From assembly GCA_037443265.1 (NCBI GenBank), contig JBBIOR010000008.1:27994-47095 (forward strand): DNA of 19,102 bases. Reading direction: 5' to 3'. The number at the start of each line of letters is the position of its first letter. Position 1 is the first letter of the stretch. Below are positions 12,001 to 15,000 of the stretch, one piece after another. Position numbers: made by a program. Origin of the DNA: Candidatus Fraserbacteria bacterium. GTDB lineage: Bacteria > Bipolaricaulota > Bipolaricaulia > RBG-16-55-9.

Positions 12001-15000
12001 CTTTTTCGTCATCCGGGCGAAGCGGGGTGAGCACATAGATGGCGTTCTCAAACAAGAACGGATCGGCAGCCTCTAGGCCCTTCCTCTCCGAGCCGGTCAT
12101 GGGATGGCCGCCCACGAAGTTTTGGGGCAGATATTTTTGGGCCGCGCGGCAGATCTCTCGCTTGGTCGAGCCCAGATCCGACACGATCGCTCCCGGCGGG
12201 ATACAGGGAGCTAGAGCGGGCAGAAGCGCTAAAATGGCTCCAATGGGCGTGGCCAGAAAGATCAAGTCCGCATCCGTCACACCCTCGACCAGATCGGGCG
12301 TGCCCCAATGGATGGCTCCGCGCTCCTGCGCTCGCAAAAGGATCGCAGTGTTCTGATCGACACCGATCACGTCCACTTCGGGGCAGAAGCGCTTGATGGC
12401 TAGGCCCAGCGAGCCGCCCATCAGGCCCACGCCCACAATCGTCACTCGCCTAGGGCTTGGTAGGGAGGCCATAGCTCACCAGCCTGCGGTCGACTGTCGG
12501 AGCCAGGGCCGCCAGTCTTCCCATCAGTTGCCGGAACTCTTCTGGCCGCAGCGACTGAGGCCCATCGCTTAGGGCGCGTTCCGGGTCGTGATGGACTTCT
12601 ACGATCAACCCATCGGCACCTGCGGCAATCCCGGCCAGCGCCAAGGGGATGACCTTCGCCCGATCCCCGGCCGCATGGCTGGGATCAATAATCACGGGCA
12701 GATGCGACAGTTGCTTCAAGGCCGGAATGGCCCCGATGTCCAGCGTAAAGCGCGTGTGATCACAGAACGTACGGATGCCTCGCTCGCACAGGATCACGCG
12801 CGGATTCCCTGCCGATAGCACGTATTCTGCCGCCCAGAGCAGCTCTTCCAGTGTGGCCGCCAGGCCCCGCTTGAGTAACACGGGCTTATCGATCTGCCCT
12901 ATGGCTCGCAGGAGCGGGAAGTTCTGCATGTTGCGCGCCCCAATCTGCAAAATATCCGCATAGCGCGCGACCCGCTCTAAGTGCGTGCTCTCAAGCACCT
13001 CCGTGACGACCAAAAGGCCATGCTCATCGGCCGCCCTTCTCAGCCAGCGTAGAGCCTTCTCGCCCAGACCCTGAAAGCTGTACGGAGATGTGCGCGGCTT
13101 GTACGCACCACCCCGCAAGATCTTTGCGCCAGCCCTGGCCACCTGTTCTGCGATGATGCAGATCTGTTCGGGATCCTCCACGGAGCACGGCCCGGCCATG
13201 ATCACCAGTTCCGAGCTGCCAATGCGCACCCCGCTGAGTTCGATCACCGTGCCCTGGGGGTTCCAGGCCCGGCTGGCCAGTAGCCTCTCGCCAGGCTTCG
13301 TCGTCGCCATCACCATAGCAACCTCCTGATGCTTTTGAGCCCGCTGAGAGCCTCAGACGCTCTCAGGCGCTTGCCGTACCGTCGCGGAAAAGCAAAGGAA
13401 AAGTGAGATGGGAAGGTTTATTGGCCCCGGAGGGGCCAGAAATAGAAGGCAAAAGAGAAGCTCAAGTAGAAGGCCTGTTGTGGAATCTTACTCAGCTGTA
13501 AGCCCGCCATCTCTTACGCTCCTCTTGTGAGAGGTCACTATAGCATGATTCACCGACTTTGTCAAGGCCTGGCTGCGAGCCGAGGGGCAATCACCAAGAA
13601 GCGTGTAGTATTGTCCGGTTGCGAGGAGATTCCTTCTCTCAAGATGATGAGGCCGTAGAGTCGGGCCACCCTCTCCCCAGCGATAGCAGCTCGGTCGAGA
13701 TCTCCTACGGCTTGGATCTGCTTGGCGGCTCCAGCCGTATCATAGAAGGCATGCACCTGGACTCCCAATTGCTCCAGAAAATCCCTACACTGCATAAGAG
13801 CCTGAGGATGAGAGTACACGTGCCGAATCGCTTCCAAGGAACTGCCCGGATTCCCCAAGAGGCAGTGCTCAATTCTTAGGGAGACGGAGTCGAGAATTCT
13901 CACCGGCTGCTTCGCTAAGAGTTCTTGAACTTCAGCAATGACGCCGGTGATCGAGTTCTCGATGGGAATGACAGCCGCTTCTGCCTCCCCTTGGCTTAGC
14001 CGCGCGAAGACCTCCGCAAAGGTGCGGCAGGGCACCGTCTGCGGGCTTGGGCCAAAATACCGTTCGATGGCTTCCTCTCCGTAGGCCCCTGGCTCTCCTT
14101 GAAAGGCAATGCGCTTCTTCCTCATCGCTTCTTTCTTTCAGGGACAGTGATCTGCTCCTCCAGGCGACGCGATTCGAGAAAGATGGCTTTAAAGATGCGC
14201 TGCACGGCGGCTTGACTGAGAGGTCCGCGATTCTGGGCCTCCAAGCGGGCGAGCACTTCCTCCTCCCGCTCCGGAGAGTGAATCGGCAACCCTTGACGAG
14301 CCTTCTCGCGCCCGATGGCCAAGGCGCACTCAGCACGCTCATTGAGCAGCTTGAGGAGCTGCTCATCGATCTCATCGATCCTCTTGCGCCGCTCTTCGAT
14401 CATCCAGAAGGCCTCCTCAGGGAAAGTTGCCGCAATCTCTCAATGCCCTCTAAATAGCTCTTAAGACCTCCACCACAGATCTGGGCCAAGCAGACAGGCG
14501 CGATGACGGACACAGCTCGAAATGCCTCTCTATGATAGATGTCGGACAGATGGACTTCCACGGTGGGAATCCCCACAGCCGCAATGGCATCCCGCAGCGC
14601 ATAGCTGTAATGCGTAAGCGCCCCTGGGTTGATCACAACGCCCTCGGCCCAACGCCGCTCCTCGTGCAACTTGTCGATGAGCGCCCCTTCATGATTCGAT
14701 TGGAAGATTTTAAGCTCGAGTCCCCGGGCAGAAGCAAAGCTCTCCAGGGCGCGATTGAGCTCCTCCAGCGTGAGCGGGCCGTAGATGTGCCTCTCCCGCT
14801 CCCCTAAGAGATTCAAATTCGGCCCGTGAAGGACGAGAATCCGCTTCATCTTCGCCCCTGAAGATACCCTAAGGCCCCTACGAGTTCCTCTTCGCTGACG
14901 TCATCGCGCACGACAGCCTCCCCGATCCGGCGAAGCAGCACAAAATGGAGCTTATTGTGATAGATCTTCTTGTCTTGATAGACGTAACTGAGCACCACCT

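Follow-up and report, generated by a model that had tools for sequence, protein, structure and literature searches.

A candidate Rho-dependent aromatic attenuator without intrinsic terminator before the DAHP synthase operon, and a candidate Trp-codon frameshift in trpE, of a Candidatus Fraserbacteria bacterium

The DNA analysed here, called the window below, is a stretch of 19,102 nucleotides from a Candidatus Fraserbacteria bacterium (assembly GCA_037443265.1, contig JBBIOR010000008.1, positions 27,994 to 47,095). It carries, on one strand, a short leader ORF, aroF, tyrA, three genes that are, from their motifs, probably aroA, aroE and aroC, and trpE (Table 1). No DAHP synthase other than the aroF product was found in the genome, which is 88% complete; this enzyme lacks the N-terminal PF18152 regulatory domain that relatives show. 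Matches of family f11 with a 'TGA inside' aroF were set aside, the TGA being merely the natural stop codon and no sign of selenocysteine.

Table 1. Positions in the window of the leader, aroF operon and trpE features.
Feature	Position	Strand	Remarks
Sigma-70 promoter of leader	13537..13565	-	TTGACA-17-TG-TATAGT; 11/12 matches
Leader SD (segment 1)	13519..13526	-	AAGAGGAG
Leader ORF	13418..13510	-	30 codons, 30 aa; 5 Phe, 2 Tyr, 1 Trp
Aromatic control-codon block (segment 2)	13436..13471	-	F14..W25; pyrimidine-rich, anti-SD-like
GC hairpin in last leader codons	13422..13438	-	7 bp, 3-nt loop; translates as 'WPLRGQ' end
Tail after leader stop	13383..13417	-	C/U-rich, G-poor; candidate Rho loading (rut) segment
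Spacer hairpin	13344..13366	-	8 bp, without U-tract; not conserved among relatives
aroF SD	13322..13327	-	AGGAGG
aroF	12450..13316	-	type I-beta DAHP synthase, 288 aa
tyrA, aroA, aroE, aroC	8046..12472	-	closely spaced/overlapping; presumed same transcript as aroF; tyrA by HMM
Separate promoter of trp genes	7563..7591	-	TTGACT-17-TATAAT
Zero-frame ORF of trpE	7497..7538	-	13 codons, strong SD, single Trp codon
Candidate +1 frameshift site 1	7509..7524	-	internal SD-like GGGTGA, then CTT TGG (7514..7509)
Candidate +1 frameshift site 2, inside trpE	7283..7288	-	CTT TGG; common to G033; no clear internal SD
Main part of TrpE	6136..7287	-	reachable only after both +1 shifts

The initial annotation described the leader as a 30-codon ORF with its own promoter and SD, and all three were found again as quoted. 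Two promoter-type sites were found, versus 0.2 in shuffles. The promoter lies about 30 nt 5' of the leader start, the ORF being SD-led and not leaderless, and its -35 box shares bases with the stop codon of the gene before it, which encodes an ACT-less prephenate dehydratase; most leaders of relatives have a similar promoter upstream. The distance of 104 nt given earlier between the leader stop and aroF holds if the stop codon is counted, with 101 nt between it and the aroF ATG. Judging from its SD and its conservation, the leader is presumably translated. It has 8 aromatic codons in 13, which ranks first among 802 SD-led short ORFs located 40-260 nt before a long ORF (the runner-up has 5); when no downstream gene is required, seven SD-led ORFs reach at least 6 aromatic codons. 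Searches of the leader returned 0 Rfam matches at E<=5, and none in NCBIfam or Pfam.

Among the 35 genomes of the order, 18 contain a total of 27 aroF loci, preceded by a Phe-type leader (17 loci), a Tyr/Trp-type leader (7 loci) or none (3 loci: one directly behind another gene, one with no clear leader and one cut). A covariance model added G012 and G032, bringing the leader to 19 genomes of the order. Its 20 matches at E<1e-4, two of which are pieces of a single G027 leader, are known aroF leaders or lie before aroF, and of four matches at E>0.005 the three inspected were all inside membrane-protein genes. The leaders have 3-8 aromatic codons each. The spacer to aroF, thought earlier to be near-constant at 100-130 nt, in fact varies from 73 to 133 nt; in-frame fusion of leader and AroF by frameshifting was rejected because these lengths fall in all three frames. 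Aromatic codon blocks before aroF or CM-aroF are a wider feature of the phylum and are also seen in Ca. Kryptonia, where four loci have the same layout with another hairpin and peptide. As the annotation had it, Tyr/Trp leaders head second aroF copies; these copies lie ahead of trpE, and leader make-up follows the operon. His-rich leaders are present before hisG within the same order, and no convincing leader was seen among 11 leuA loci examined.

That the ORF arose by chance, or encodes a small membrane peptide with no part in regulation, would agree with the hydrophobic aromatic stretch and with the lack of any family match. We regard it as very improbable given the first rank among 802, the fixed position before aroF in 19 genomes, the restriction of conservation to the block and the hairpin, an amino-acid content that tracks the operon, and the His-rich hisG leaders.

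Apart from the aromatic block, the only conserved part of the leader is the GC hairpin. First, 25 of 26 leaders have a hairpin stronger than that of their synonymous recodings (p<=0.05), and it starts in frame 0, 1 or 2; this p value, like all those below, overstates significance because related genomes are not independent. Second, it covaries, with 96.5% of cells paired and 13 double changes, a result equalled in 0 of 500 shuffles. In the Tyr/Trp leaders (n=7) the hairpins were no stronger than expected from synonymous recoding. The peptide end, which had been described as fixed, varies among relatives: WPLRGQ, GAFRP, WTPQGS, FPCGG, AQWWRNHWA, EPLKGA, FAPQGA and GPPPGA were observed, yet the hairpin persists, in any of three frames and with its arms flipped. 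On the sequence evidence, the P, R, G and A residues of the leader end are the translation of the conserved GC hairpin and not an arrest motif, and very likely it is the hairpin rather than the peptide that is conserved. Its role is probably that of a pause or spacer element. A genome-wide scan for the combination of hairpin and tail found it in 3 of the 802 short ORFs, and the other two have no amino-acid bias.

These observations bear on a TnaC-like arrest peptide, in which the nascent F-rich chain with its W-P-P-R-G-like end would stall the ribosome in response to free aromatic amino acids. Elongation can be slowed by pairs of Pro and by hydrophobic aromatic stretches, and FWPPRG[A] recurs among several f1/f2 leaders, with F-W-P-P-R in G002. 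However, the reading of the hairpin in three frames, the absence of RAPP, RGPP or RAGP motifs from the leaders and the unrelated peptide ends of sister orders, which keep the aromatic block, leave this explanation unsupported. Such motifs tolerate few substitutions (PMC12992588). In addition, arrest induced by a ligand, as in TnaC, would switch genes on in the presence of abundant amino acid, whereas a biosynthetic operon calls for the opposite response. We therefore consider an arrest peptide improbable. It is similarly improbable that the hairpin itself is an atypical, U-poor terminator helped by NusA or NusG, the folding of which a stalled ribosome would block. The hairpin is the best conserved element, directly follows the final aromatic codons and has a few A/U bases behind it; but it has no U-tract, ordinary U-tract terminators are used within the same phylum, and a coupled, non-stalled ribosome would cover the hairpin as well, so that the two states would not differ.

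No intrinsic terminator (hairpin plus U-tract) was found between the leader and aroF in the window. The terminator scan flagged only 2 of the 17 Phe-type leaders, weakly and both at the in-ORF hairpin, versus 16 of the 20 leaders of sister families f6 and f9. The first 40 nt past the leader stop are instead poor in G (fraction 0.16, versus 0.29 in 116 background spacers) and in structure (MFE -3.3, versus -8.2 in the same spacers and -13.1 in 19 terminator-type leaders); G001, where the tail is not C-rich, is the exception. Rho was matched in all 35 genomes, above the cut-off in 32. Termination by Rho under the control of a uORF is established (PMC12360218).

Pairing within the leader RNA was compared between states. 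Two partners are available to the leader SD, the aromatic block (-20.0 kcal/mol) and the tail (-21.1). In this genome (G000) its pairing with the block outperforms all 400 recodings, and in 13 of 26 leaders the same pairing is significant at p<=0.05. The unpaired fraction of the G000 tail is 0.71 in the released and 0.46 in the stalled state; 11 of 19 leaders shift in the same direction by more than 0.05 and 8 show no gain in tail accessibility. The accessibility of YC dinucleotides rises in 18 of 19 leaders, a gain partly built in by the masking used. Two pairings considered as conserved switches did not covary across relatives: that of the G000 5' end with the tail (permutation p 0.41) and that of the tail with the aroF RBS (p 0.73). 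A pairing of the leader 5' end with the aroF SD, present in the full MFE structure, was set aside, as it draws on bases that lie at the likely start site or 5' of it and is unseen in relatives. Enrichment of C-ending Phe/Tyr codons as a rut signature was absent: these codons end in C less often in the leaders (0.52) than in aroF (0.70), hence leader codon choice is not optimised for a rut site. It also counts against masking from Rho that a ribosome stalled on the block would not physically cover the tail.

Read in order, the locus consists of a promoter, an SD-led ORF, an aromatic block, a GC hairpin, a stop codon at or near the hairpin foot and an unstructured C-rich tail. The proposal that this leader before the DAHP synthase gene senses Phe, Tyr and Trp is supported by the phylum-wide aromatic blocks and by a make-up that tracks the operon; the arrest-peptide part of that proposal is not. 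Sensing by ribosome stalling on aromatic codons is, in our judgement, very probable indeed. We somewhat favour a ribosome-mediated attenuator that would sense the charging of tRNA-Phe, and here of the Tyr and Trp tRNAs too, and act through Rho without any intrinsic terminator, Rho being the output with slightly better than even probability. With aromatic amino acids in good supply, the ribosome would reach the leader stop and leave; in this genome the block would then pair with the leader's own SD, limiting reloading and leaving the tail bare, and Rho would load there and stop transcription ahead of aroF or in its early part. Under aromatic shortage, the ribosome would wait on the block and hide it, and the freed 5' end could pair with the tail, in this genome, allowing the aroF-tyrA-aroA-aroE-aroC operon to be transcribed. 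In several relatives the same block might act as an extended anti-SD for aroF and add a translational shut-off. Since the feedback domain has been lost from the DAHP synthase of this genome, the leader may be the only aromatic control at the entry of the pathway here.

A purely translational attenuator, in the style of the mycobacterial polycysteine ORFs, was weighed as the main alternative. The block would pair with the aroF SD and start region, stalling would free the SD, and the downstream genes would respond through coupling or polarity. Long duplexes between the block and the cognate aroF RBS are found in G031 (17 contiguous pairs, -25.4), G034 (-24.1), G027 and G086 (both -21.5) and G028 (-20.1), with a permutation p of 0.018 over 18 leaders, and in 10 of 17 the aroF RBS is more than 1.5 kcal/mol cheaper to open upon stalling. 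The dimensions also match those of Ms5788A, a 90-nt ORF with a 97-nt spacer (bioRxiv 10.1101/834739). Nevertheless, the cognate duplex of G000 amounts to only -12.0 and is matched by 13 of 24 non-cognate RBSs, and here the RBS costs more to open in the stalled state (11.3) than otherwise (9.9). When 26 leaders are included, p in the permutation test is 0.10, and only 4 of 26 beat synonymous recoding. Translational attenuation alone, which also leaves the G-poor tail unexplained, appears unlikely, if still worth serious consideration.

Amino-acid attenuators are textbook knowledge, and aromatic leaders before DAHP synthase are likewise known. In the aroR-aroF system of C. glutamicum, a short leader ORF with aromatic codons precedes the DAHP synthase gene, as here, and stalling upon Phe limitation raises expression (Neshat et al., 2014, per PMC11802643; Mentz et al., 2013, PMC4046766); aroR carries F-Y-F, whereas the present leaders have 3-8 aromatic codons, with a hairpin inside the ORF where it stops and no intrinsic terminator. 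F/Y uORFs at shikimate genes have also been described (Stav et al., 2019, PMC6429828, Fig. 6). Control by end-product codons in a short leader ORF is shared with the classical pheL and trpL and with the sister Bipolaricaulota f6/f9 leaders, but the U-tract terminator hairpin detected in those 16 of 20 sister-family leaders is absent here. Like Ms5788A (bioRxiv 10.1101/834739), this leader has about 30 codons, a spacer of about 100 nt and no terminator; control codons able to pair with the downstream SD are shared by only some relatives: in this genome the pairing is weak, and it is significant in no more than 4 of 26. Unlike Ms5788A, the leader is SD-led rather than leaderless, aromatic rather than Cys-rich, and has an additional conserved hairpin and G-poor tail. 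With the Rho/uORF attenuators tnaC, speFL, cruR, mgtL and corL it has in common a short uORF beside a C-rich unstructured segment, the state of the ribosome setting Rho access; those systems use ligand-induced arrest, Mg-dependent translation or metal sensing (PMC12360218), and Rho use is only predicted here. Among the rows listed in the portion of that review concerned, the only biosynthetic leader is hisL, mainly intrinsic.

The trp genes present a second candidate sensor. In this genome trpE lacks an SD-led start codon for itself and lies in the +1 frame relative to a mini-ORF with a single Trp codon; past site 1, TrpE continues in the +1 frame. Its best match is TIGR01820 (archaeal-type TrpE), with a score under the cut-off. 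The cassette, a mini-ORF with an SD and a slip site at UGG, is kept in 27 of 33 trpE regions, with two sites in series in G000 and G033. At these 27 sites the slip codon is CTT (12) or GTT (15) and the A-site codon is always UGG, and the SD of the uORF averages -14.2 kcal/mol, versus -1.5 for the in-frame GTG; trpE of G001 has an additional in-frame ATG with an SD. The same cassette with codons other than UGG was not found in 305 loci (711 kb). We consider a +1 frameshift in trpE, possibly sensing Trp, likely.

The arrangement resembles the prfB +1 frameshift, with a short zero-frame ORF, an internal SD just 5' of CUU-U and the main ORF in +1 (PMC5009743): prfB of this genome reads GGTGATCGC CTT TGA C and trpE of a relative GGTGATCGC CTT TGG C. 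The cassette would work like prfB and is not prfB, as the A site holds UGG (Trp) instead of UGA, so that the signal would be Trp-tRNA and not RF2, and 15 of the 27 sites are GUU-U. A 2016 review states that no example was known of hungry-codon frameshifting making a starvation-specific trans-frame protein (PMC5009743). No report of attenuation in Bipolaricaulota or of the trpE frameshift was found in the literature searched, which left out most subscription papers.

Taken together, two terminator-free ribosome sensors might run aromatic synthesis in this bacterium, a proposal we make tentatively, at somewhat below even probability: a hungry-codon leader with Rho output (control codons, hairpin, stop, rut), found also in Ca. 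Kryptonia, and TrpE synthesis solely through +1 slips at Trp codons, in a prfB-like cassette present twice in series here. As the trpE cassette is one base off the genome's own prfB site, it is directly testable with a reporter. If the frameshift is real, the TrpE starts of this phylum in databases (GTG, M-x-x-F-G, present in 39 of 116 TrpE homologues) and 'broken trpE' calls may be wrong. More generally, an end rich in Pro, Arg and Gly can, in a short ORF, be a translated hairpin instead of an arrest motif. Finally, the presence of the same operon with and without a terminator in one phylum offers a natural test of how a hungry-codon sensor is wired to Rho or to SD sequestration.

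The ORF that precedes aroF, the gene for DAHP synthase, has its stop codon 101 nt upstream of the aroF ATG (13316). Of the 802 SD-led short ORFs in this genome (G000) that are followed by a long ORF at a distance of 40-260 nt, it holds the densest aromatic window (8 residues in 13 codons; runner-up, 5). ORF, SD, promoter and aromatic density together confirm the initial annotation, which placed here a short aromatic ORF with its own promoter and SD. An SD-led 17-codon ORF with an F/Y run at its end (contig C5, minus strand, index 13936) may be the second F/Y-rich candidate of that annotation. 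AroF (288 aa) is the sole DAHP synthase found in this genome (88% complete), and it is devoid of the PF18152 regulatory domain present in relatives. The 187-aa prephenate dehydratase, the stop of which is overlapped by the leader promoter, has no ACT domain; two feedback domains are thus absent in G000.

Features of the window and leader stems of G000 and relatives
Feature	Position	Strand	Detail
Leader ORF	13510..13418	-	30 codons; 5 Phe, 2 Tyr, 1 Trp
SD of leader ORF	13526..13519	-	
Leader promoter	13565..13537	-	near-consensus
Prephenate dehydratase	13562..14125	-	
aroF (DAHP synthase)	12450..13316	-	
DsrE/DsrF-like gene	7613..7969	-	118 aa
Own promoter of trp genes	7591..7563	-	
trpE mini-ORF	7538..7497	-	SD-led ATG at 7538; 13 codons, one Trp
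Candidate frameshift site 1	7514..7509	-	CTT TGG after SD-like GGGTGA; TrpE onward in +1 frame
Candidate frameshift site 2	7288..7283	-	CTT TGG; stop after 16 codons, TrpE onward in +1
Leader stem, G000			TGGCCCC-TCC-GGGGCCA
Leader stem, G028			GGACCCC-TCA-GGGGTCC
Leader stem, family f3			GGGGCC-TTCC-GGCCCT, arms flipped
Leader stem, G020			TTCCCCC-GCC-GGGGGAA

We collected 27 aroF loci from 18 of the 35 order genomes: a Phe-type leader stands at 17 of them and a Tyr/Trp-type leader at 7, and 3 are without leader or cut. The leaders of G012 and G032 were added by a covariance model trained on 17 leaders, strong matches of which were aroF leaders. The Phe-type spacer is 73-133 nt long, a wider range than the near-constant 100-130 nt first proposed. 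Tyr/Trp-rich leaders before second aroF copies, also proposed, were found at seven loci (L002, L013, L021, L024-L027); they are longer (36-53 codons), five have their stop codon within a hairpin, and several of the associated AroF copies are short. In G002 and G034 these second copies stand upstream of trpE. At L020 (G033, contig C31) a second aroF copy upstream of trpE has no clear SD-led start or leader and is possibly degenerate.

In all Phe-type leaders, a GC-rich stem of 5-11 bp lies immediately 3' of the aromatic block and ends at or near the stop codon. The fixed W/F-P-P-R-G-like peptide end, previously read as perhaps an arrest peptide, is this RNA hairpin translated in three frames (frame 0, 1 or 2 at the stem start) and conserved as a stem. 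In 25 of 26 leaders the real codons outfold synonymous recodings that leave the peptide unchanged (p<=0.05). In an alignment of 17 rows, 96.5% of cells are paired, 13 with both sides changed, a result matched by none of 500 shuffles; two of the five pairs are invariant. A RAPP-like motif, as described in the available part of PMC12992588, was not found in the leaders. Because the end is conserved as a frame-independent, covarying hairpin and not as a peptide, and the arrest motif is absent, the arrest-peptide reading was rejected. The hairpins that end the seven Tyr/Trp leaders were no better than the recoding control. Four aroF loci of Ca. Kryptonia (L102, L105, L110, L111) show the same succession of block, hairpin, stop and G-poor tail; their 10-bp stem translates to AQWWR[ND]HWA, with two Trp codons, and stands upstream of aroF at 901 in each locus.

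No intrinsic terminator was detected in the window at the aroF leader, which in this differs from a classical attenuator. A looser scan flagged 2/17 Phe-type and 2/7 Tyr/Trp-type intervals, compared with 16 of 20 leaders before CM-aroF (from 24 loci examined) in the sister families f6 and f9. Loci L028-L052 of these families have classical aromatic attenuators with terminator before chorismate mutase-aroF (ends such as YYFPGGV and YFFGYFYFVN); the G035 leader of the same group has a C-rich tail and no terminator. Outside the order, 40 of 56 aroF matches were read as regions. One locus of f8 (G086) shows the layout without terminator; in f11 (L061, L062, L063) second aroF copies have Trp-Trp-Trp leaders, behind which a stem and U-run were read by eye. 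Relative to 116 background spacers, the first 40 nt behind the stop codon of 17 leaders are poor in G (0.16 versus 0.29), skewed towards C (+0.20 versus -0.01) and weakly folded (-3.3 versus -8.2 kcal/mol), with G001 as an exception. A Rho match was present in 35/35 order genomes.

Since block, hairpin and, with this one exception, tail are common to all leaders, Rho-dependent attenuation is favoured and may well be the output, as judged from sequence. When aromatic amino acids are plentiful, ribosome release would leave the block bound to the leader's own SD and the tail open; in scarcity, a stalled ribosome would free the 5' end to pair with the tail. Modelled co-transcriptional folding of the G000 leader gave, with the ribosome released, SD:block pairing, the hairpin and an open tail (0.71 unpaired), and, with the ribosome stalled, 5'-end:tail pairing (tail 0.46). 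The tail shifted in this direction in 11/19 leaders; 5'-end:tail pairing showed no covariation across relatives. Block:own-SD pairing (-20.0 in G000, equalled by 0/400 recodings) was significant in 13/26 leaders.

The block is pyrimidine-rich and able to pair with an SD, and might also sequester that of aroF, as a second layer or as the sole output in some lineages. In G031, G034, G027, G028 and G086 predicted duplexes of 14-21 bp join it to the SD and start of aroF, as in the mycobacterial polyCys design (available part of bioRxiv 10.1101/834739), and modelled stalling makes the aroF RBS cheaper to open in 10/17 leaders. This signal is not general: its permutation p rose from 0.018 with 18 leaders to 0.10 with 26, pairing was better than recoding in 4/26, and in G000 the duplex is unremarkable and stalling leaves the RBS unopened. 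We consider SD sequestration in either role less likely than Rho-dependent attenuation.

At trpE, a mini-ORF with a slip site forms a cassette that is probably a Trp-sensing +1 frameshift, a candidate drawn from sequence comparison. It was found in 27/33 trpE regions of the phylum: 13/13 order genomes with trpE and 14 of 20 other-family regions (fetched from 35 matches; the negatives are two f8, one f9, one f11 and two cut by contig ends). At the f11 loci L061, L062 and L063 trpE belongs to a different type; the one that was read (G156) lacks the cassette. All 27 mini-ORFs have a single Trp, at the slip site (codon 9-16), an invariance partly set by the search pattern, before the fixing of which the 13 order loci were read. 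A scan of 305 loci allowing any U-starting codon returned 27 sites, all TGG. Twelve sites have CTT as P-site codon and 15 have GTT; GUU-U slips less well than CUU-U, which counts against frameshifting. The G000 prfB frameshift site, GGTGATCGC CTT TGA C (contig C33, about 7811-7826, minus strand), shares a GGTGATC-type internal SD with the cassette. TrpE could instead initiate at the in-frame GTG through coupling. The SD of the mini-ORF averages -14.2 kcal/mol versus -1.5 for that GTG (27 sites), and coupling leaves unexplained the second trpE break, which recurs in G033, of a different genus. The lack of a clear SD at the second break and an additional in-frame ATG with SD in G001 also count against frameshifting. 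The G000 TrpE is archaeal-type; homologues named Thermoplasmata have normal starts, and 39/116 homologues are gene-called as M-x-x-F-G. A DsrE/DsrF-like gene (below the Pfam cut-off) lies between aroC and the trp promoter.

According to the accessible parts of the sources, CUU-U is highly conserved and natural starvation-specific use of hungry-codon frameshifting was not known in 2016 (PMC5009743), and hungry codons with an upstream SD promote +1 shifts (PMC2377451); we found no paper on trpE frameshifting in the literature searched. As far as these texts are accessible, aroR of C. glutamicum is an aromatic leader before DAHP synthase (PMC11802643, PMC4046766), F/Y uORFs are known at shikimate genes (PMC6429828), and Cys leaders without terminator, for which a link to Rho was proposed, have been on record since 2005 (PMC1262725). 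No description of such attenuation in Bipolaricaulota was found in the literature searched; Neshat 2014 and the Stav supplement may bear on the novelty of the leader. The initial interpretation is partly supported: the aromatic-sensing leader before DAHP synthase stands, without its arrest peptide, and is very probably a new form of ribosome-mediated attenuation. His-rich leaders precede hisG in 4/7 his loci (L215, L216, L217, L219), with a terminator in G002 and with C-rich tails and no terminator in G027 and G028; because they too are present, ribosome leaders are a habit of the order.
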